Source: an uncultured Verrucomicrobiae bacterium (GTDB taxonomy: Bacteria; Chlamydiota; Chlamydiia; Chlamydiales; Rhabdochlamydiaceae). Taken from it: a stretch of 64,000 nucleotides of DNA. The position numbers and the translations under genes were made by a program. The stretch spans positions 542,129-606,128 of the forward strand of contig CAWDYW010000003.1 in NCBI GenBank assembly GCA_963806855.1, in the 5' to 3' direction. The stretch's first letter is position 1. Every line of letters begins with the position of its first letter. Below the pieces are notes generated by a model. It did no database searches, was not told where the DNA came from, and saw only the letters and a list, made by a program, of their open reading frames with translations. Positions 7,816 through 46,716 of this stretch are shown here, piece by piece.

Positions 7816-9936
7816 ATGAACGTCGGCGAAGAGAAAAAAAGGCTACATTGGAAGGATTGGCTCGGGGATGGCCATTTTGGGAAACGTCTTGCCGTCGCAT
7901 TATTCTTTTTTTTATCTCTGGCCCTGTTTCTGCACTTTAGAGAGGTGCGGATGGAGGTCCTCGAACAGGGGACCATTGCCGATCAGTACATCATCGCCCA
8001 GGTCGATTTTGAATTTGCCGATGAAGATGCGACGCTGGTGATCAGGCAGCAATCGGTACGCGATGTTGGATCGATCTATCGGATCAGCGACAAGCAGCTG
8101 AGGCAGATCCGCTCCGATTTTGGGAGCTATCTGCTCACACGGCAAGATTGGCGCGACAAATTAAAGCAGACCACTTTTGATGAGCTCTACCGGGGGGCCG
8201 ATGCACTAGAAGACGCGCTCGCCGATGCCCGCTTTACCAATCAGCGGACGATTCAAAAGATGAAGGATTATGGCCTCATCACCGATAATTATTACCCATT
8301 TACACCTGAAAATATTCAAGAGCCAGCGATCCTGCCAAACACCTTTTGGCGACAGCTGCGCGACAAGGTCTTCGCTTCGAAAAATGTCAATCCTGAAACA
8401 GCCAGCTTTATTTTGGAGTCGTTTGAGAATCAAACTTGGAATTTGCAGCTCGATGGAGTCTCAGAGCGAAACTTGCGGCAGCTCATCCAAGAAAAAGTTC
8501 CTGTTCAATATACTCAGGTCAATGCGGGCAATCACATCATCGATCCTGGTGAAAAAGTGACGAGTCGTCATCTGGCGATGTTGCAGGCAATGAAAACTGC
8601 CATAGCCAAGCAGCGCAACCTTTTCAGTATTCGGACGATTGTCGGTAGTTTGCTGATGTCGCTCTTGTTTACTACCCTGAGTGTCATTTACTTTAGGATC
8701 AACCACCCTGCCATCCTCAATTCCGTCCGCAAAATGACCCTCCTGGTCACGGTGATCATTTTGACCTTGATCCTTGCCAAATGTTCCGAATATTTCTTGG
8801 TCAATCGGGGAACCTATTTAATTGAATTCTTCCGCTATCCGGTGATTGTCCCCTTTGCTTCGATCTTGATCTTTGTCCTAGTCGGCTCCGAAGTGGCCCT
8901 CTTTGCCTCTGCGTTTTTAGCGATTGTCATTGGGGTGACCCTCGCCATCGACCACGACCGGTTTTTGATCATCAACTTAATTGCCTCATGGGTGACAATT
9001 TTATTTGCCCGCAATATGCACAAGCGGAAAGAGGTCTTCACTGTGCTCGCAAAGGTGTGGCTTACTTGCTTGCCGGTGATCATTGCCTTTAATTTAGCTC
9101 AGAACTTCTTTGTCACGGCTCATATGCTCGAAGATGTGGTCAGCTCGCTCATTTTCATCACGCTGATTGCCGTTCTGGTCATCGGGCTCTTGCCGCTGCT
9201 CGAGTCGGTTTTCCATGTGATGACCGATATGACGCTCATGGAATATATGGACCCCAACAACGAGTTGCTCCGCCGCCTCAGCGTCGAGGCCCCAGGGACC
9301 TATCAACACTGTCTGGTGGTGGGGAATTTAGCGGAGAGTGCCGCTCGGGCGATTGGGGCAAACGGATTATTCTGCCGCGTCGCCACCCTTTATCACGACA
9401 TCGGAAAACTCTTTAACCCCCACTATTTTACCGAAAATCAGCTCGGCGGATTCAATATTCACCAGCTGCTCACCCCTCTCGAATCGACCCAGGTGATCAT
9501 CGCCCACGTCCCAGAAGGGGAGGCTCTGGCTCGCAAGTACCGGCTTCCTCAGAGCTTCATCGACATCATCCGGGAACACCACGGCACAACCCTCGTCTAT
9601 TATTTCTATCACAAACAGCTCCAGCAGATGGGAGGGGATGAATCGAAGGTCGATGAAAAACTCTTCCGCTATCCTGGACCCAAACCCCATACAAAAGAAT
9701 CGGTCATCATCATGCTGGCCGATTCAGTCGAAGCGACATCTCGATCGCTCGATGAGATCACCGAAGAGGCGCTCAATGCGATGGTCGAGAGGCTGGTGAA
9801 GGAAAAAACCGACGACGGCCAGCTCGACGACTGCCAGCTCACTTTTGAGGAACTGGGGATCGTCAAGAAAACCTTAGTGAAAACGCTCGCTATTTCTGGC
9901 CATTTGCGGGTCAAGTATCCCGAGAAGAAGAAGTAG
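7816..9936 (+). CDS. 7TM-HD membrane phosphohydrolase (PgpH/YqfF-like HDIG protein)
   Basis: 706 aa. An N-terminal TM helix plus a soluble domain, then a block of about 7 hydrophobic helices, then a C-terminal HD domain (TLYHDIGK, REHHGTTL). Confidence 0.85.
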   Translation: MNVGEEKKRLHWKDWLGDGHFGKRLAVALFFFLSLALFLHFREVRMEVLEQGTIADQYIIAQVDFEFADEDATLVIRQQSVRDVGSIYRISDKQLRQIRSDFGSYLLTRQDWRDKLKQTTFDELYRGADALEDALADARFTNQRTIQKMKDYGLITDNYYPFTPENIQEPAILPNTFWRQLRDKVFASKNVNPETASFILESFENQTWNLQLDGVSERNLRQLIQEKVPVQYTQVNAGNHIIDPGEKVTSRHLAMLQAMKTAIAKQRNLFSIRTIVGSLLMSLLFTTLSVIYFRINHPAILNSVRKMTLLVTVIILTLILAKCSEYFLVNRGTYLIEFFRYPVIVPFASILIFVLVGSEVALFASAFLAIVIGVTLAIDHDRFLIINLIASWVTILFARNMHKRKEVFTVLAKVWLTCLPVIIAFNLAQNFFVTAHMLEDVVSSLIFITLIAVLVIGLLPLLESVFHVMTDMTLMEYMDPNNELLRRLSVEAPGTYQHCLVVGNLAESAARAIGANGLFCRVATLYHDIGKLFNPHYFTENQLGGFNIHQLLTPLESTQVIIAHVPEGEALARKYRLPQSFIDIIREHHGTTLVYYFYHKQLQQMGGDESKVDEKLFRYPGPKPHTKESVIIMLADSVEATSRSLDEITEEALNAMVERLVKEKTDDGQLDDCQLTFEELGIVKKTLVKTLAISGHLRVKYPEKKK

Positions 9937-10666
9937 GGACACGTTCCGAAATCTGCTTTTTCTCTATCCGTTCGATGACAAAGTCTGGTACCACTCTGGT
10001 AATTAGAATCAGCAGCTTGTATCTCCAATCAAATAGATCAATCTTTTTTCCGGTTTCGATCTGTTTCCAAATATGTTTAGCAGCTACTTCAGCGGTCATA
10101 GTTCGTGAATCTGGCTTTTGAGGATACCCCTTTGCTGCCCGGGGACGGAATTTTGTCTCAATTTGTCCGGGGCAGGAGCAGAGAACTTTGATCCCTGTGT
10201 CGCGCAATTCAGCATTTAAGCCAAGGGAGAAGTATCTAACGAAGGCCTTCGTGGAGTGGTAGACATTGAACAGGGGAGAGTGGATATACCCTGCCGCAGA
10301 AGAAATATTGAGAATGGTCCCTTTTTGGCCCGCATCGACCATCGTTTTGGCTGCGTGAATGGAAATTTCAACAAGCGCCTTGACATTCACCTCAATCATG
10401 TCGAGCTGATCTTGGATCTCCAGATCAACCGTATTGCCATAGAGTCCAAAGCCCGCATTGTTGATGACTAGATCCGGTTTTTTTTCTGTAATGAGTTCCA
10501 ATAATTTTTGTCTGCTGCCCCTCAGATCGATCGGGAGTGTCGAGTCGGTGCGACCTGTCGTGATGACCTCGATCCCTTTTTCCTTTAATAACTTCACTAA
10601 AGCCGCGCCAAGGCCGCCAGTCGCACCTGTCACGAGCGCACATTTAAAAGAGGGCTTCGATTTCAT
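9911..10666 (-). CDS. short-chain dehydrogenase/reductase (SDR), tandem copy 1
   Basis: 251 aa. TGATGGLG, NNAG, and catalytic YHSTK. Its 3' end overlaps the convergent pgpH-like gene by 26 nt. Confidence 0.9.
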   Translation of the reverse strand: MKSKPSFKCALVTGATGGLGAALVKLLKEKGIEVITTGRTDSTLPIDLRGSRQKLLELITEKKPDLVINNAGFGLYGNTVDLEIQDQLDMIEVNVKALVEISIHAAKTMVDAGQKGTILNISSAAGYIHSPLFNVYHSTKAFVRYFSLGLNAELRDTGIKVLCSCPGQIETKFRPRAAKGYPQKPDSRTMTAEVAAKHIWKQIETGKKIDLFDWRYKLLILITRVVPDFVIERIEKKQISERVPTSSSRDT

Positions 10667-10802
10667 CTAAAATCCTTTGAGTTCTTTTAATCCCTATATC
10701 AATTGTGGTGAATTTTAGCTCGTAAATCCCGACATAGACTTTGAGCTTTGGTTCGCTCCTGGCGCAACTTTTCCATTTCCGCACGTCTCAAATCAAACAC
10801 CC
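10667..10802 (-). pseudogene. duplicated 3'-end fragment of the phosphohexomutase gene (duplication scar)
   Basis: 10667-10802 matches 11592-11830 (the 3' end of the intact mutase gene) nearly base for base, apart from an internal deletion of about 100 bp. No ORF is retained. Confidence 0.8.
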
Positions 10803-10862
10803 TAGTGAAAACGCTCGCTATTTCTGGCCATTTGCGCGTGAAGTACCCTGAGAAGAAGAAGT
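10803..10862 (+). pseudogene. duplicated 3'-end fragment of the pgpH-like gene (duplication scar)
   Basis: TAGTGAAAACGCTCGCTATTTCTGGCCATTTGCG.GT.AAGTA.CC.GAGAAGAAGAAGTA repeats 9875-9936, the last 20 codons plus the stop. Confidence 0.8.
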
Positions 10863-11591
10863 AAGTCTCTTAGTCCACATTTTTTTCTCGATCCTTTCAA
10901 CGATTACATCTGGGATCAGCTTGGAAAACACAACCAGTAACTTGTACCGCCAGTCAAATAGCCAAATCCTTTTGCCACTTTCGATCTGCTTCCAAATCGT
11001 GTTTGCAACGAATTCCGTAGACATCGCTCCTAGTTCGGTCTTTTTTTGAGCCCCCTTAGTTGCTCGGAACGCAAATTTGGAGTCGAATCTCCCCGGACAG
11101 GTACACAGGACTTTGATCCCCTGATTGCGCAGCTCTGCATTAAAGCCGAGGGAGAAAGATTTGACGAAGGCTTTTGTAGCGTGATAGACATTGAACATGG
11201 GAGAGTAGAGATAGGCCGATACAGAGGATACGTTGAGAATCGTCCCTTTTTGACCAGCCTTGACCATTGTTTTGGCGGCGTGGATAGAAATTTCAACAAG
11301 CGCCTTGTCATTCACCTCAATCATGTCGAGCTGCTCTTGGATCCCGAGATCAATCGAATTGCCAAGGAAACCAAAGCCTGCATTGTTGATGACTAGATCT
11401 GGTTTTTTTTCTGTAATGAGTTCTAATAATTTTTGTCTGCTGCCTCTCAGATCGATCGGCAGCGCCGAGTCAGTGCGATCTGTCGTGATGATTTCGATCC
11501 CTTTTTCCTTTAATAACTTAACTAAAGCTGCGCCGAGGCCAGTTGTCGCTCCGGTCACGAGTGCACATTTAAAAGAGGGCTTCGATTTCAT
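10818..11591 (-). CDS. short-chain dehydrogenase/reductase (SDR), tandem copy 2
   Basis: 257 aa. TGATTGLG, NNAG, YHATK. The N-terminal roughly 120 residues are nearly identical to copy 1, and the C-terminal half is much more diverged. Confidence 0.9.
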   Translation of the reverse strand: MKSKPSFKCALVTGATTGLGAALVKLLKEKGIEIITTDRTDSALPIDLRGSRQKLLELITEKKPDLVINNAGFGFLGNSIDLGIQEQLDMIEVNDKALVEISIHAAKTMVKAGQKGTILNVSSVSAYLYSPMFNVYHATKAFVKSFSLGFNAELRNQGIKVLCTCPGRFDSKFAFRATKGAQKKTELGAMSTEFVANTIWKQIESGKRIWLFDWRYKLLVVFSKLIPDVIVERIEKKMWTKRLTSSSQGTSRANGQK

Positions 11592-13176
11592 CTAGTATCC
11601 TTTGAGTTCTTCTAATCCCTATATCAATTGTGGTGAATTTTGGCTCGTAAATCCCGACATAGACTTTGAGCTTTGGTTCTGTTCCGGAGGGTCGAATGAT
11701 GATTTTGCTACGATCGTCGAGCTGAAAAAAAATAAGATCTGCCGGATAGGAGATAAACCGCCCTGAAAATGCCTTGGGGAGCTCCTGGCGCAACTTTTCC
11801 ATTTCTGCACGTCTCAAATCAAACACCCTTTGCTCTTCCCAATAAAGTCCATATTTTCGATAGATCTCCTTGAGAAAATCGACAAGTGTTTTTCCGGCGA
11901 CCTTGAGCTCTAGAGCAATGTGGCAGATGAGACAGCTGGCAATGAGCGCATCTTTATCGTGGCAATAGGTGCCGTAAAGGTAGCCATACGACTCTTCTGC
12001 TCCAAATAGGAAATGGTGTTTTTTATCTCCTTCCCACTCTCGCATGAGCTCTCCAATATACTTGAAGCCAGTCAAGACCTTAAAGCAGTCGACTTTGTAA
12101 CGCTCACAGATTGCCGAAAAGAGATCGGTGGAGACGATCGTCGTCACGGCGGCACTGCCAGGTGGCGGCCCCTTTTGGCACAAGAATTCAAGGCAAATGA
12201 CGCCGATCTGATTGCCATTCAAAACCGTCGCGGCTCCCTGATGCATCACCGCTATCGCGACCCTGTCAGCATCGGGATCGGTGGCGATTAAGATGTCTGA
12301 CGCCGTATTTTGGAGTTGCTCTAGGCCCATCTGGAGCGCTTCCCGATTTTCGGGGTTAGGGCTTGCGACAGTGGGAAAATCGCCATCGGGCAAAAGTTGA
12401 TGATCAACCGGATTGATATTGGAAAACCCCCACCGGAGCAGGGCCTTAGGCAGCAATTTAAAAGCAGCTCCATGAAGAGGAGTATAGGTGATCTTCAGCT
12501 GATCTCCGATGTGGTGATTTTCTTTTGGATTGATTTGCAAAGCTTCCAGCGCACTCAGATATTCTTCATCAAATTCCAGATCGAGGACTTGGATGAGGGG
12601 TTCGCTTTCAATTGAGAGCTTGATCTGCTCGAAATCGACCACTTTTTCCATTTCGGCGCTCAAGGCTATCTCCTGGGCTCCGACCACTTGCCCTCCATCG
12701 CTTCCATAGATCTTATAGCCGTTGTAGTTTTTCGGGTTGTGGGAGGCGGTGATCATGATCCCCAGACTGCACCCTTTTTGCCTTACGCCGAAAGAGAGAT
12801 AGGGAGTCGGACGAAACTCGGGCGTCAAATAGACCCCGATTCCATTAGAGGCAAGGACACGGGCAGCTTCTATGGCAAATTCTTTTGAGTTGTGGCGCGT
12901 ATCGTAACTGATGAAGACCCAGTGTCGCTCAAGACGGGGAGGTTGGCGGAGCAGATAGTTGGCGACCCCTTGCGTTGCCAGTTGCACCGTGTAACGGTTG
13001 AGACGGTTTGTCCCCACACCCATCAATGCTCGCAGCCCACCAGTCCCAAAGGAGAGGCGTTGGTGGAAAGCATCGTTTAGATCGGCTGGGGAAAGTTTTC
13101 GAATTTCATCTTTGCTCTCTTGATCGAGGGGACCGTTGAGCCACTTCTGAACCCGTTTTTCTATATCTGGTGTCAT
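11569..13176 (-). CDS. phosphoglucomutase/phosphomannomutase family (alpha-D-phosphohexomutase)
   Basis: 535 aa. Active-site loop GIMITASHNP, metal loop ATDPDADR, and sugar-binding GAEESYGY. Confidence 0.9.
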   Translation of the reverse strand: MTPDIEKRVQKWLNGPLDQESKDEIRKLSPADLNDAFHQRLSFGTGGLRALMGVGTNRLNRYTVQLATQGVANYLLRQPPRLERHWVFISYDTRHNSKEFAIEAARVLASNGIGVYLTPEFRPTPYLSFGVRQKGCSLGIMITASHNPKNYNGYKIYGSDGGQVVGAQEIALSAEMEKVVDFEQIKLSIESEPLIQVLDLEFDEEYLSALEALQINPKENHHIGDQLKITYTPLHGAAFKLLPKALLRWGFSNINPVDHQLLPDGDFPTVASPNPENREALQMGLEQLQNTASDILIATDPDADRVAIAVMHQGAATVLNGNQIGVICLEFLCQKGPPPGSAAVTTIVSTDLFSAICERYKVDCFKVLTGFKYIGELMREWEGDKKHHFLFGAEESYGYLYGTYCHDKDALIASCLICHIALELKVAGKTLVDFLKEIYRKYGLYWEEQRVFDLRRAEMEKLRQELPKAFSGRFISYPADLIFFQLDDRSKIIIRPSGTEPKLKVYVGIYEPKFTTIDIGIRRTQRILDEIEALF

Positions 13177-13219
13177 AATTTGATGGTAGCAAATACATTC
13201 TATTTTGGTTGACCTTTTT

Positions 13220-13286
13220 TCAACGCAAAGACGCCAAGGCGCAAAGACGCAAAAAAATATTTTTTTTCTTTGCGCCTTTGCGTTGA
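13220..13286. repeat. octamer-repeat hairpin (gene-less copy of the ACGCAAAG inverted-arm element)
   Basis: TCAACGCAAAGACGCCAAGGCGCAAAGACGC, an A/T loop, then CTTTGCGCCTTTGCGTTGA. It uses the same arms that flank the GxxExxY gene at 24271-24722. Confidence 0.85.
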
Positions 13287-13287
13287 A

Positions 13288-13690: not shown

Positions 13691-13860
13691 AGACCTCTTG
13701 CATAATTTAGGTTCTGTCTATTTTAGGGTTCTTTTGAACCGATTTTCAATTCAAATTGCAGGGGTAATATCGGCCCCAGCATATGACCCCTGCAATTTGA
13801 ATCGAAAATCGGCCAAAATAATCCCGAAAATCGACGAACCCTAAGTTATGCAAGAGGTCT
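13691..13860. repeat. 170-bp near-perfect palindromic element (P1) filling a whole intergenic spacer
   Basis: Outer arms AGACCTCTTGCATAA.TTAGG / CCTAAGTTATGCAAGAGGTCT. Inner arms CCGATTTTCAATTCAAATTGCAGGGG / CCCCTGCAATTTGAATCGAAAATCGG. The loop is 13765-13786. Confidence 0.9.
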
Positions 13861-14739: not shown

Positions 14740-14907
14740 GGCTCGACTTTGTACAATTTTTTGCGGCATCTCTGAGAGAATCGCTGGCAAACTATTCATT
14801 TATTCGCTCATTAATAGTGCCTTCGGCTATGAATTTCGCGAATAAATGAATATTTTGCCGAGCGCTTCCTCTGGATCTGCTTGCTAAAAATTTTACAAAG
14901 TCGAGCC
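14740..14907. repeat. 168-bp near-perfect palindromic element (P2)
   Basis: Outer arms GGCTCGACTTTGTACAATTTTT / AAAAATTTTACAAAGTCGAGCC. Inner arms GGCAAACTATTCATTTATTCGC / GCGAATAAATGAATATTTTGCC. Almost the whole length can pair. Confidence 0.9.
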
Positions 14908-29177: not shown

Positions 29178-30068
29178 TTAATATTTATCTGCGAGAATTA
29201 TCTCATTTTTGTCGTGTACAACTTCAACACCCTTAGTTTTGAGCATAGCGGCTTGAATTTGTTTTTCATCGACTTTTTTAAGATCTTTTGCCAATCGACA
29301 TTTACTTAAGAGCCAGATAAACCATTTTGTCGGGTCAAATTGGTACCAACGGATTCCATTGCGATAATCTCTTGGGAATACGTGGTGAAAATTGTGATAC
29401 CCTTCTCCAAAAGTTAAGAAAGCGGCTAACCAATTGTTCACAGCAGTCTGTTTTTCAGAATAAGGTCTAGACCCAATCGTGTGGGCAAGGGAATTAATAA
29501 AATAGGTGCAGTGATGACAGAGGAGAAGGCGAACTCCATATGCCAAGACAAAAGCGCCTACCATATCGTGAATTAACCAGCCTAAAATCAGCGTAGGGAC
29601 GATATTGGCAATAAACATCAGTTTGATTTCATGCTTATGCTGAAACATCACCAAGGGATTGGCACAAAGATCTTTGACCACCTTTTCATCAATCTCTTTC
29701 GGATCATCAAAAAGCCATAACAGGTGGGCATACCAAAATCCTTTTTTTATCGAATAAGGATCATCATCTGTATCGACATAAGCATGGTGATGGCGATGCT
29801 CAAATGCCCATCTAAGAACGCTATACTGGGCTGCCATACTCCCGAAAAAGAGGATAAAATATTCAATGACTGGATGGACTTTATAGGTGCGATGCGCGTA
29901 GAGCCGATGATATCCCGCTGTAATGGCAAGCATCGTAGCGGCATAGAAAAGGCAACTGGTGAGGATCAAAGCAAAAGATGGGCTTTTCCCCCAAATAAAA
30001 TAAAAAGGCAAACTCAATAAAACAATTAATTGATATGCGATGACAGTATGGCCTGTGGTCCACTTCAT
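29178..30068 (-). CDS. membrane fatty-acid (acyl-CoA/acyl-lipid delta-9 type) desaturase
   Basis: 296 aa. Three histidine boxes, HRLYAHR, HRHHH and HNFHH, with flanking TM helices. The gene is AT-rich. Confidence 0.85.
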   Translation of the reverse strand: MKWTTGHTVIAYQLIVLLSLPFYFIWGKSPSFALILTSCLFYAATMLAITAGYHRLYAHRTYKVHPVIEYFILFFGSMAAQYSVLRWAFEHRHHHAYVDTDDDPYSIKKGFWYAHLLWLFDDPKEIDEKVVKDLCANPLVMFQHKHEIKLMFIANIVPTLILGWLIHDMVGAFVLAYGVRLLLCHHCTYFINSLAHTIGSRPYSEKQTAVNNWLAAFLTFGEGYHNFHHVFPRDYRNGIRWYQFDPTKWFIWLLSKCRLAKDLKKVDEKQIQAAMLKTKGVEVVHDKNEIILADKY

Positions 30069-31288
30069 TTTTTCTCCATTAACGTTGAATAGAGCTTCAG
30101 GTGTTTCATTCGAAATTGATCGAGTGAAAAATCTTGGGCTCTATTTATCCCTTTTTGCATTAGTTCCTTCGACAACTCTCGCGAGGATAAAATTTTCTCA
30201 ATGGCATCAGCTATTTCTAACGGATCTTTAGGATCGACGCAGAGCGCTGCTTCGCCAACAATTTCTTTCGGTGCCGAGCCATTTGAAGTGACAATCGGCG
30301 TCCCGGAGGCCATGGCCTCAAGTAGAGGAATCCCAAACCCTTCATATAGAGAGGGCCATACTAGAACGGATGCCTTTTGAAACAGCCGCGCCTTCTCCGC
30401 CTCTGAGATATATCCGGTAAGAATAATATCATCGCTCAGGTTATACCCCGCGGCGTCCAAAATTGTGGATTTGGACCGCGCCAAAGCCTCGGGGTTTAAC
30501 TGTTGTTCCGAGGGTTGTATTAAATCGATACTACCCTCGGAACAACAGTTGAACCGCGAGAGCTTTCGCGTGGGTCCAAATTCACAATTTTGGACGCCGC
30601 GGGGTATAGTTGGAAGACAATTTGTCCCTTCTTCTTTGCCAGCTAAAATCAGCCGATGGGGATAGCCACGCTTTTTGATGATCCCAAAGGCCTCGATAAT
30701 CCCTTTTAAGTTTTTGCGGGGCTCAAACGATCCGATATAAAATAAAAAGGGCTCTTTCTCCTCATCGATCGTCCGCTCTCTCGGGAGCAGGGCACACGGA
30801 ATCACCGTCACCTTATTCTCAATCTTGGGAAATAACCGGACCAAATCATCGCGTGTCTGCTGACTCACAGCTGCGATCGCCGCCGCCTCATTTAAATAGC
30901 GGGGGAGGAAGTAACTCATTATACAATAGCTCTTCTTTGGAAACAAGTGGGGAAATAAAAGGGGCATTACATCGTGAATTGTCAGGACAAAGGGGGCTTT
31001 TGGCTTTTTCCCATATAAAATTTTTGGTTCAGGGAAGTGCATCAGATCTAGGTCGTTAAAACAGCGGAGGTGGCAAAGAGCGCTTAAGCTTTTGGAGAAG
31101 GGGATCCTAAGCTTTTTTCGAAAATGGTGGTGGGCAACTTTAGGGAAATGGAGATCGGTCGCATTGGGACTATGGTAACAGACAATCCCTTCATTTTTGA
31201 GCGCTTCGATCAGCGTCAAAGTAAAATAGCCAACCCCTCGAATCGTCCCGCAAAGCCCTTCTGTCTCAATTCCGAGTTTCATACCCAT
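30065..31288 (-). CDS. GT4 family glycosyltransferase carrying an in-frame palindromic insertion
   Basis: 407 aa. C-terminal GT4 motif PSLYEGFGIPLLEAMASGTPIV. About 55 atypical residues (TNCLPTIPRGVQNCEFGP...STILDAAGYNL) are encoded by the palindrome at 30442-30608. Confidence 0.85.
   Translation of the reverse strand: MGMKLGIETEGLCGTIRGVGYFTLTLIEALKNEGIVCYHSPNATDLHFPKVAHHHFRKKLRIPFSKSLSALCHLRCFNDLDLMHFPEPKILYGKKPKAPFVLTIHDVMPLLFPHLFPKKSYCIMSYFLPRYLNEAAAIAAVSQQTRDDLVRLFPKIENKVTVIPCALLPRERTIDEEKEPFLFYIGSFEPRKNLKGIIEAFGIIKKRGYPHRLILAGKEEGTNCLPTIPRGVQNCEFGPTRKLSRFNCCSEGSIDLIQPSEQQLNPEALARSKSTILDAAGYNLSDDIILTGYISEAEKARLFQKASVLVWPSLYEGFGIPLLEAMASGTPIVTSNGSAPKEIVGEAALCVDPKDPLEIADAIEKILSSRELSKELMQKGINRAQDFSLDQFRMKHLKLYSTLMEKK
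30442..30608. repeat. 167-bp palindromic element (P3) inside the GT4 coding sequence
   Basis: Perfect outer arms TATACCCCGCGGCGTCCAAAATTGTG / CACAATTTTGGACGCCGCGGGGTATA. Inner arms AACTGTTGTTCCGAGGGT / ACCCTCGGAACAACAGTT. The ORF reads through the element. Confidence 0.9.
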
Positions 31289-31314: not shown

Positions 31315-31398
31315 CTATACCGAAATTGATTCAAAAATCGGCTTTTGGGAGCTTTCAATCCCGCCCAAAAACCGATTTTTGAATCAATTTTGGTATAG
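31315..31398. repeat. 84-bp palindromic element (P4) in a divergent intergenic region
   Basis: CTATACCGAAATTGATTCAAAAATCGGCTTTTGGG pairs with CCCAAAAACCGATTTTTGAATCAATTTTGGTATAG (35-nt arms, 2 mismatches). The CCGATTTT..TTCAAA core resembles the P1 inner arm. Confidence 0.85.
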
Positions 31399-31457
31399 CT
31401 CCAAAAATTGGAAAAATGGTATGGTTTGCAACTACCCTTTAACCCAGATAGAGAAGT

Positions 31458-39239: not shown

Positions 39240-39296
39240 TATACCCCGACTCGCCCAAACGTGTGAATGTGGACCGCGCCAAAGCCTCGGGGTATA
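39240..39296. repeat. 57-bp hairpin related to one half of palindrome P3 (P5)
   Basis: TATACCCCGACTCGCCCAAACGTGTGAATGTGGACCGCGCCAAAGCCTCGGGGTATA aligns with 30442-30496 of P3. The GGACCGCGCCAAAGCCTCGGGG block is identical, and the ends pair with each other. Confidence 0.8.
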
Positions 39297-39297
39297 A

Positions 39298-39334
39298 GCG
39301 CAAAGACGCAAAACTAGATTTTTTGCGTCTTGGC
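39298..39334. repeat. short hairpin built from the ACGCAAAG-type repeat
   Basis: GCGCAAAGACGCAAAA-CTAGAT-TTTTGCGTCTTGGC. The arms belong to the same octamer family as 13220, 24271 and 46639. It overlaps the 3' end of the 81-aa ORF. Confidence 0.7.
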
Positions 39335-39559
39335 TTTCGGAGTCCCTTTAAAGACTATGCCGGCTTTCCTATCTTCAGCAGGATTGACAGACCCTTTTGT
39401 ATACCCTTCAATTTTTGCTCCGCCGCGAGCTAGGACCGCTCTTTGTACTACAGCTTTCGTGTCATTGACATTGGTTTTCAATTCGGGTGAGATTCTTTTG
39501 CTTGGCTCGGGGCCTCTTGCTTCTGAACCTCTTCCTGGTGTTACTCCTCGAATTCCCAT
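39314..39559 (-). CDS. hypothetical small protein (81 aa)
   Basis: An ORF with no recognised motif. Its last residues (KAKTQKI) are encoded by the octamer-repeat hairpin. Coding status is uncertain. Confidence 0.35.
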   Translation of the reverse strand: MGIRGVTPGRGSEARGPEPSKRISPELKTNVNDTKAVVQRAVLARGGAKIEGYTKGSVNPAEDRKAGIVFKGTPKAKTQKI

Positions 39560-46606: not shown

Positions 46607-46708
46607 AAACGCAAAGATGCTTTAGTTGAGGTTTTTTTCAACGCAAAGACGCAGGAAAAAGAAAAAATATTTTTTTTTGCGTCTTTGCGCCTTTGCGTCT
46701 TCGCGTTG
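46607..46708. repeat. octamer-repeat hairpin (gene-less copy) between convergent genes
   Basis: AAACGCAAAGATGC, then TCAACGCAAAGACGC, an A/T loop, and a full 30-nt right arm GCGTCTTTGCGCCTTTGCGTCTTCGCGTTG. It is the same element family as 24271-24722. Confidence 0.85.
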
Positions 46709-46716
46709 AAAATGTC

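Follow-up and report, generated by a model that had tools for sequence, protein, structure and literature searches.

Correia elements (CREE/NEMIS) of Neisseria measure about 105-155 bp, carry 26-bp terminal inverted repeats, duplicate TA, fall into long and short (internally deleted) classes and form long RNA stems; the great majority of them lie between genes, and they influence promoters and the processing of mRNA. The Rickettsia palindromic elements (RPE-1 and related families; Ogata et al. 2000/2002) are described as palindromic repeats lying in frame inside genes (PMC10969869, PMC3184786, PMC1458961), and a single genome, that of R. bellii, carries 526 RPE copies, of which 53 are genic (PMC1458961; review PMC10969869). 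In-frame insertions of MITEs have also been documented outside Rickettsia, namely for the QMITEs of Coxiella (PMC5896051) and for ERIC/YPAL of enterobacteria, BOX of the pneumococcus and the MITEs of Anabaena (PMC3184786, PMC10969869). Two QMITE families, QMITE1 and QMITE2, are known from Coxiella burnetii, with direct repeats of 7-11 nt for QMITE2 (PMC5896051).

The window analysed here, a stretch of 64,000 nucleotides, contains a gene for a GT4 glycosyltransferase with a palindromic segment inside its coding sequence. This segment most likely represents one copy of a mobile palindromic element, MITE-like and non-autonomous and from a family of environmental chlamydiae of a Parachlamydiales-like lineage, that landed in frame in a surface-loop linker of the GT4 enzyme and left the host gene intact, with the encoded peptide as a passenger. 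The features of the locus are collected in Table 1.

Table 1. Coordinates, strands and supporting evidence of the features in the window
Feature	Position	Strand	Evidence
Host gene, GT4 (GT-B fold) glycosyltransferase, 407 aa, bearing the insertion	30065..31288	-	ORF list, Pfam, AF2, Foldseek
Palindromic element including the flanking TA on each side, 167 nt	30442..30608	- (family sense = gene's strand)	Fold and arms; orientation from nhmmer and family alignment
Putative element proper, 163 nt, obtained by taking off one TA as target-site duplication	30444..30606	-	165-nt difference to L001, TA flanks, BPL_N empty site
TA, putative target-site duplication, gene-proximal 5' side	30607..30608	.	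Ortholog and family alignments, empty site
TA, putative target-site duplication, 3' side in gene orientation	30442..30443	.	Ortholog and family alignments, empty site
55 inserted codons, I228-Y282 (IPRGVQNCEFGPTRKLSRFNCCSEGSIDLIQPSEQQLNPEALARSKSTILDAAGY)	30443..30607	-	Ortholog alignment
Inner core module B (GGACCGCGCCAAAGCCTCGGGGTT, plus strand), conserved across three element families	30473..30496	.	Family comparison
Inner core module A (AACCGCGAGAGCTTTCGCGTGGGTCC, plus strand), imperfect complement of module B; asymmetry conserved across families	30552..30577	.	Family comparison
Apical GTAT-N7-ATAC hairpin, conserved across families	30517..30531	.	Inverted-repeat search, family comparison
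Mirror ORF, 66 aa, opposite strand; by-product of the palindrome, no gene	30465..30665	+	ORF list; antisense phase 2 stop-free in genic copies
57-nt short form (TATACCCCGA...TCGGGGTATA), intergenic, just past a stop codon	39240..39296	+	nhmmer E = 1.4e-7

A reading of the sequence alone (hereafter the sequence-only reading) had described a 167-bp palindrome inserted in frame in the GT4 gene, and this description stands: the whole segment forms one near-perfect hairpin with 73 predicted pairs, its RNA minimum free energy on the gene sense strand is -126.9 kcal/mol as against -51 for shuffled sequences (z = -17.2), its DNA fold reaches z = -17.8, and the frame stays open through the entire palindrome, with neither a frameshift nor a stop. 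The perfect 26-nt outer arms that it reported were recovered at 30442-30467 and 30583-30608 (2 matches versus 0 expected, with 0 in 100 shuffles) and reach 36 nt at 97% complementarity. The inner arms are present as well, but they had been put at 18-19 nt around a 17-nt loop and in fact extend over 33 nt at 91% complementarity around an apical loop of 7 nt. The mirror ORF that had been attributed to the palindrome does appear in the ORF list as such a by-product. The terminal inverted repeats, of about 26 nt (TACCCCGCGSCGTCMAAAATTGTG...), are conserved in five full-length copies; the element, 163-167 nt long, holds no transposase gene, and its sole open frames encode the 55-aa peptide, which has no family match. 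Terminal inverted repeats, small size without a transposase gene and dispersed copies at non-homologous loci are generic features of MITEs, and all three are found here. No transposase or IS with matching ends was found in the window, nor were further copies of the arms detected in its 64 kb. An intrinsic terminator was considered for the hairpin and rejected, because no T-run follows it.

Comparison with orthologs demonstrates that the GT4 segment is an insertion and not an ancestral part of the gene. The insert lies between ...GKEEGTNCLPT and NLSDDIILTGYIS, and ortholog alignment, which the sequence-only reading had proposed as a check of its estimate of roughly 55 residues interrupting the C-terminal Rossmann domain, delimits it cleanly at exactly 55 codons. 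The closest relative retrieved by protein search (P0002) has 352 aa, 55 fewer than the window protein, and is encoded on a syntenic contig (L001) that shares with the window a KH-domain gene, a STAS gene, miaA, a fatty-acid desaturase gene, an ftsQ-like gene and murC as neighbours. The two GT4 genes are 94.5% identical at the nucleotide level, and the gene on L001 lacks exactly 165 nt. Window and contig are colinear over about 8 kb, in which the sole large indels are the GT4 element and a second lineage-specific palindromic element situated 28 nt upstream of the GT4 start codon. Ten further orthologs, with 54-77% identity when the insert is left out, all lack the segment; distant orthologs carrying it without palindromic DNA, which had been named in advance as an observation that would speak against an insertion, were not found, the segment being absent from both the closest syntenic and the more distant orthologs. 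The insertion point falls where the alignment is most variable and gapped, after beta2 (HRLILAGKEEG) and before beta3 (DIILTGYIS) in the C-terminal Rossmann domain.

Copies of the element also occur outside the window. A terminal-pattern scan with one genome per species yielded three, all in the MAG Parachlamydiales bacterium SW_40: L002, a full-length copy overlapping the last codons of an FMN-reductase-like gene at its 3' end; L003 (190-246), a short form of 57 nt nearly identical to that of the window; and L004, a partial copy nested in another palindrome. Full-length copies were likewise found on three metagenome contigs (L005, L006 and L021). When cluster representatives were searched exhaustively, two small ORFs with full-length copies emerged on a 1.45-Mb contig, together with a DUF6603 protein (P0245) with the element two codons ahead of its stop, in the C-terminal tail. 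A six-frame peptide search recovered the insert peptide in a HAMP/class 3 adenylate cyclase (P0121), within the N-terminal sensor region upstream of HAMP, and in a BPL_N-domain protein (P0123). In searches of viral contigs and of a plasmid collection the element had no match. One apparent further in-frame host (P0122) proved to be a gene-call artefact, in which the element occupies the intergenic space of tandem OMP genes and one of its own GTG triplets was taken as start. About 10 copies are known so far across several assemblies, at unrelated loci both inside coding sequences (the GT4, BPL_N, cyclase and DUF6603 genes) and outside them, at intergenic sites of several assemblies, so that the earlier claim of a repeat family is upheld; the host-gene homologs and the copies come from Parachlamydiales- or Chlamydiae-labelled assemblies. 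The half-copy that had been reported downstream in the window (39240-39296) is real, but judging from its sequence it is a dispersed deletion derivative of 57 nt and not a fragment: it has its own 10-nt terminal inverted repeats and corresponds to the long form deleted between two CGGGGT direct repeats, and the flanks of the short forms in the window and in L003 are non-homologous, so the two loci are not orthologous.

The four unrelated proteins that bear the element in frame (GT4, BPL_N, cyclase and DUF6603) all carry it in the same orientation and codon phase, with the 55-residue insert reading x-IPR...GY-x in each and the flanking TA spanning codon positions 3|1 in four of four. TA is found on both sides in most copies. 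One empty site is provided by the BPL_N gene: P0123, which probably derives from the same genome as the window GT4, exceeds its closest homolog P0124, a protein from the L001 sample, by exactly 55 aa, and the other homologs listed also lack the insert. In the DNA encoding P0124 (L020, ...ATT TCT AAT TCT...) a single TA is located exactly at the S|N junction (TCT|AAT), which fits a TA duplication in which TC-TA-[163 nt]-TA-AT encodes S-IP...GY-N. The GT4 locus itself gives no clean empty site with TA because the L001 sequence there has diverged, reading TCCGG where the TA-duplication model predicts ACTAA. These alignments are best described by an element of 163 nt with a TA duplication of 2 nt, which together give 165 nt, a description formally equivalent, from sequence, to a 165-nt element inserted into T^A.

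A mechanism suggested by these features is that the 163-nt element, putatively mobilised in trans by a transposase, inserts at TA and duplicates it, as would suit an enzyme of the IS630/Tc1-mariner type, thereby adding 165 nt; since this sum corresponds to 55 codons, the frame would never be shifted. In the genic copies two of the six combinations of orientation and phase (sense phase 1 and antisense phase 2) are stop-free, and in the mostly intergenic L002 copy all six contain a stop. Because only two of six combinations lack stops, survival inside genes would be limited to the permissive phase and orientation, and the recurrent frame is most simply explained as a survivorship filter. Genic insertions would accordingly be expected to persist only if the TA spans codon positions 3|1, the orientation is permissive and the recipient site is a tolerant surface loop; in GT4 the landing site would be the variable beta2-beta3 linker of the C-terminal Rossmann domain, and the insert may be translated as a largely disordered 55-residue loop. 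One tryptic peptide predicted from it is LSRFNCCSEGSIDLIQPSEQQLNPEALAR.

The host gene encodes a recognisable GT4 enzyme. Pfam identifies Glyco_transf_4 in the N-terminal half and Glycos_transf_1 (1.3e-35) as two stretches, the best of which resumes at residue 275, near the end of the insert, and both glutamates of the EX7E motif (E316 and E324) are invariant in the ortholog alignment; together with the GT-B fold, these two domains and this motif place the protein in family GT4. The AlphaFold2 model, built from a 55-sequence alignment, is a confident GT-B structure (pLDDT 86.5, pTM 0.86), to which the nearest structures retrieved by Foldseek are GT4 enzymes such as GlgM, MshA and BshA. Residues 229-263, all within the insert, are the only ones under pLDDT 50, and a weakly supported helix (266-276, pLDDT about 60) follows inside the insert. 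In the model the insert thus appears as a loop of low confidence that links two strands in the C-terminal Rossmann domain, in agreement with the surface-loop position whose modelling had been recommended earlier. The same arrangement is seen in the BPL_N host, whose fold is confidently predicted (pLDDT 87.2) and whose insert is a low-confidence segment between strands 143-149 and 207-213, at the turn of a beta-hairpin.

The GT4 gene is under purifying selection, and the element-bearing branch shows no sign of relaxed constraint or faster protein evolution, which is at odds with the non-expressed pseudogene named in the sequence-only reading as the other observation that would count against it. 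Relative to the L001 gene, the gene as a whole has a dN/dS of 0.15, with 0.16 for the part upstream of the insert and 0.14 for the part downstream, values that lie inside the span of 0.02-0.25 seen in neighbouring genes, and with outgroups 2 amino-acid changes map to the window branch versus 12 to the sister branch; these tests integrate over the whole divergence, and a very recent insertion would leave no signal in them yet. It is rather improbable, given these data, that the mobile insertion has silenced or crippled the gene, through an mRNA stem of about 80 bp that is cut by RNase III or stalls ribosomes and through disruption of the promoter region by the second palindrome, with the ORF intact only because both events are recent (a pseudogene in waiting). 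Such a stem, implied by the highly stable sense-strand hairpin, could indeed serve as an RNase III substrate or a translation block, as Correia-element stems in Neisseria mRNAs are RNase III substrates; the second palindrome does lie immediately upstream of the gene; and both insertions are relatively young, as both palindromes are absent from the sister at dS of about 0.17. However, neither a frameshift nor a stop has accumulated, the low dN/dS holds on both halves of the gene, and few amino-acid changes fall on the element branch. That the three other hosts hold the element in this same open frame suggests that survivorship was filtered at the level of translated products. Nor is the GT4 copy brand new, because divergence between its two arms has already lowered their self-complement identity to 87.6%.

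With regard to the peptide itself, no selection was detected among the genic copies, where pN/pS is 1.1-1.7, and searches with it gave nothing in NCBIfam at E <= 1 and nothing meaningful in Pfam. Across the five full-length copies, double compensatory changes have occurred in 15 of the 73 stem pairs, with one G-U pair only. The neutrality of the peptide, together with compensatory changes that are almost all Watson-Crick, indicates that the constraint acts on the DNA palindrome and that the peptide is a passenger. It is very unlikely that the insert has been exapted, either with its second half (NPEALARSKSTILDAAGY) forming the helix that normally joins beta2 and beta3 and that has been shortened in this clade, or with the loop as a new interaction surface. 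The AF2 helix within the insert would fit the former possibility, as would the observation that the clade of the window protein, P0002 and P0003 lacks about 5-8 linker-helix residues present in more distant orthologs. Against this, the confidence of the helix is low, P0002 and P0003 persist without any insert, the peptide evolves neutrally, and the same peptide occurs in unrelated contexts, namely the beta-hairpin turn of BPL_N, a sensor domain and a C-terminal tail. An intein or a group I/II intron was also considered and rejected, given that the insert contains no such Pfam or NCBIfam domain and has no Rfam hit even at the permissive threshold.

More distant relatives were encountered in a metagenome scan with an inner 20-mer, which returned ten low-GC contigs with palindromic elements of similar length that differ in their termini (CTAGTACACCATCGC... 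or TAATACCAATCGC...) and stems; three other hits (L010, L011 and L018) were discarded as chance 20-mer matches in contigs of 66-70% GC. What these relatives have in common with the window element is the asymmetric inner module and the apical GTAT-N7-ATAC hairpin. None of them lies within an ORF spanning the whole element, and their orientation relative to flanking genes is mixed. In ordinary MITEs the ends are conserved and the interior drifts, whereas here the reverse applies, with three families sharing the interior and not the termini. A speculative and rather improbable extension is that they constitute a wider superfamily of modular palindromic elements, with unrelated termini and stems joined to a common asymmetric module (GGACC..CGCGAAAGCTCTCGSGGTT / AACCCCGAGGCTTTGGCGCGGTCCAA) and apical hairpin. 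This would imply a protein or machinery that reads the internal module, such as a host factor or a transposase that binds hairpins and acts on single-stranded DNA, and the frame-neutral 165-nt design would then be an evolved property for colonising coding sequence in gene-dense intracellular genomes.

The same features bear on whether the hairpin might be a functional structured RNA, regulatory or processing-related, that overlaps coding sequence and is not selfish DNA, which we regard as highly improbable. Helices covary between conserved asymmetric internal loops, the apical loop is common to the three families, and all five full-length copies are co-oriented with local transcription. Nevertheless, three of these five orientations are forced by coding, the related metagenome family shows mixed orientation, the single G-U pair stands against 15 Watson-Crick double changes, and a search of Rfam at gathering and permissive thresholds gave no family match, returning only sub-threshold miRNA-precursor-like hairpins. 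Finally, a fold-back chimera in one genome assembly can be dismissed as exceedingly improbable: amplification or long-read artefacts can create palindromes and the GT4 with the insertion was found in a single assembly, but the same 167-nt sequence recurs with family-specific substitutions in other genes and in assemblies produced independently by separate projects, and with exactly 55 codons in a recurrent phase.

A mobile palindromic element that survives in genes when it is translatable would have several implications. The chlamydial case would extend selfish palindromes in protein genes from Rickettsia and scattered other examples to another phylum, unrelated to the first, of bacteria that are obligate intracellular and associated with amoebae, and it lends support to the view that selection in reduced, gene-dense genomes favours mobile elements of translatable length and frame. 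Its matched empty sites, the models of two host folds and the strict design of 55 codons also make it an unusually clean case, and the filled and empty alleles of GT4 and BPL_N represent natural experiments on the tolerance of 55-residue loop insertions. For genome annotation, such elements inflate protein lengths, split domain hits and yield spurious small ORFs in chlamydial MAGs (P0122, P0243 and P0244).

Taken at the level of sequence, the element appears to represent a new MITE-like family in Chlamydiota that behaves like the RPEs, with no detectable similarity to curated families or to Rfam, and the phenomenon itself is already known. In the literature searched, no report of MITEs or palindromic elements was found for Chlamydiae, Parachlamydia, Protochlamydia, Simkania or Waddlia, which agrees with the sequence-only reading, to which no equivalent in this lineage was known; in-frame MITEs are, however, documented beyond Rickettsia, and the case is less unprecedented than that reading implied. 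Its analogy with RPEs captured the in-frame behaviour well, four proteins sharing one frame. Like RPEs, the chlamydial element is a dispersed palindromic repeat of about 100-170 bp in an obligate intracellular bacterium, is found both between genes and in frame in unrelated housekeeping genes, and encodes a conserved peptide in one recurrent frame at positions that fit the fold of the host protein. The analogy is one of function and not of sequence, as the searches revealed no similarity to any curated family, and the peptide has no homology to an RPE family in Pfam or, at E <= 1, in NCBIfam, which we take to include the TIGRFAM RPE1 domain model. The hosts belong to Chlamydiota instead of Alphaproteobacteria, the chlamydial element has the 26-nt terminal inverted repeats and the TA flanks that are characteristic of MITEs, and about 10 copies are known across assemblies, compared with hundreds per Rickettsia genome.

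In architecture, and in architecture only, the element most resembles the Correia elements of Neisseria, to which it corresponds in size, in the length of the terminal inverted repeats, in the TA flanks and in the coexistence of long and short forms, whereas the host lineage differs. QMITEs, ERIC/YPAL, BOX and the Anabaena MITEs are similar in that they overlap ORFs, sometimes in frame in the middle of a gene and sometimes extending or replacing the C-terminus (PMC5896051, PMC3184786, PMC10969869), as do the copy in the C-terminal tail of the DUF6603 protein and that at the 3' end of the FMN-reductase-like gene, and several of the bacteria bearing these MITEs are intracellular. Their sequences, sizes and direct repeats differ from those of the chlamydial element, and the in-frame mid-gene cases among them are mostly hypothetical proteins, whereas the chlamydial hosts are well-defined enzymes with confident folds.

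The GT4 glycosyltransferase gene is associated with a second palindrome, which lies 28 nt upstream of its start codon and is unrelated to the in-frame GT4 element, yet likewise has TA+TACC termini (Table). Since this 82-nt palindrome is absent from the syntenic sister locus L001, palindromes have inserted at this gene twice in a lineage-specific manner, in the promoter/5' region as well as in the coding sequence. At one flank of each insertion, a few bases differ from L001 far above the background of ~6%: ACTAA versus TCCGG beside the GT4 element (window 30609-30613), and GGAGC versus CGG beside the upstream palindrome (window 31398-31405). This excess divergence at both palindromes may be a footprint left by insertion or may reflect a rapidly evolving variable linker.

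Palindromic elements and hairpin motifs of the window and of metagenome contigs
Element	Location	Length	Sequence or arms
Second palindromic element	window 31316-31397	82 nt	TATACCGAAATTGATTC...GAATCAATTTTGGTATA
Intergenic palindromic element	window 13691-13860	about 168-170 nt	80-nt arms at 83%
Intergenic palindromic element	window 14740-14907	about 168-170 nt	25-nt + 22-nt arms
Repeated GC-rich hairpin motif	window 13219-13287, 39300-39335, 46635-46712		CGCAAAGACGCAAAA ... TTTTTGCGTCTTTGCG
CTAGTACACC family	metagenome contigs L015, L009, L014, L016, L017, L019, L007		
Further family	metagenome contig L013		

MITE-like hairpins of similar length are unusually abundant in the window, and the two intergenic palindromes of this kind do not resemble the GT4 element in sequence. 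The GC-rich hairpin motif, which looks terminator-like, occurs at no fewer than three intergenic sites in the window, with one copy directly after the 57-nt short form of the GT4 element.

Further arrangements were found on other contigs. At L004 (1000-1130), a locus of MAG SW_40, a different palindrome (aacctgagttttggtttacttgc ... gcaagtaaacccaaaactcaggtt) apparently harbours a short-form copy in its loop, suggesting that nested insertions occur among hairpin elements. Another strong hairpin, with sub-threshold Rfam miRNA-precursor matches, is located at the end of metagenome contig L005 (3446-3546) and is probably yet another palindromic element. On metagenome contig L006, an element copy is positioned between the first and second of three tandem paralogous, Legionella_OMP-like outer-membrane-protein genes (8966-12391), the second of which (P0122) was extended into the element by the gene caller via a GTG start.

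What the CTAGTACACC family and the L013 element share with the window element is limited to the asymmetric inner module and the GTAT-N7-ATAC apical loop; they have different stems and termini. In L014, arm-to-arm conversion has made the 5' module exactly complementary to the 3' module.
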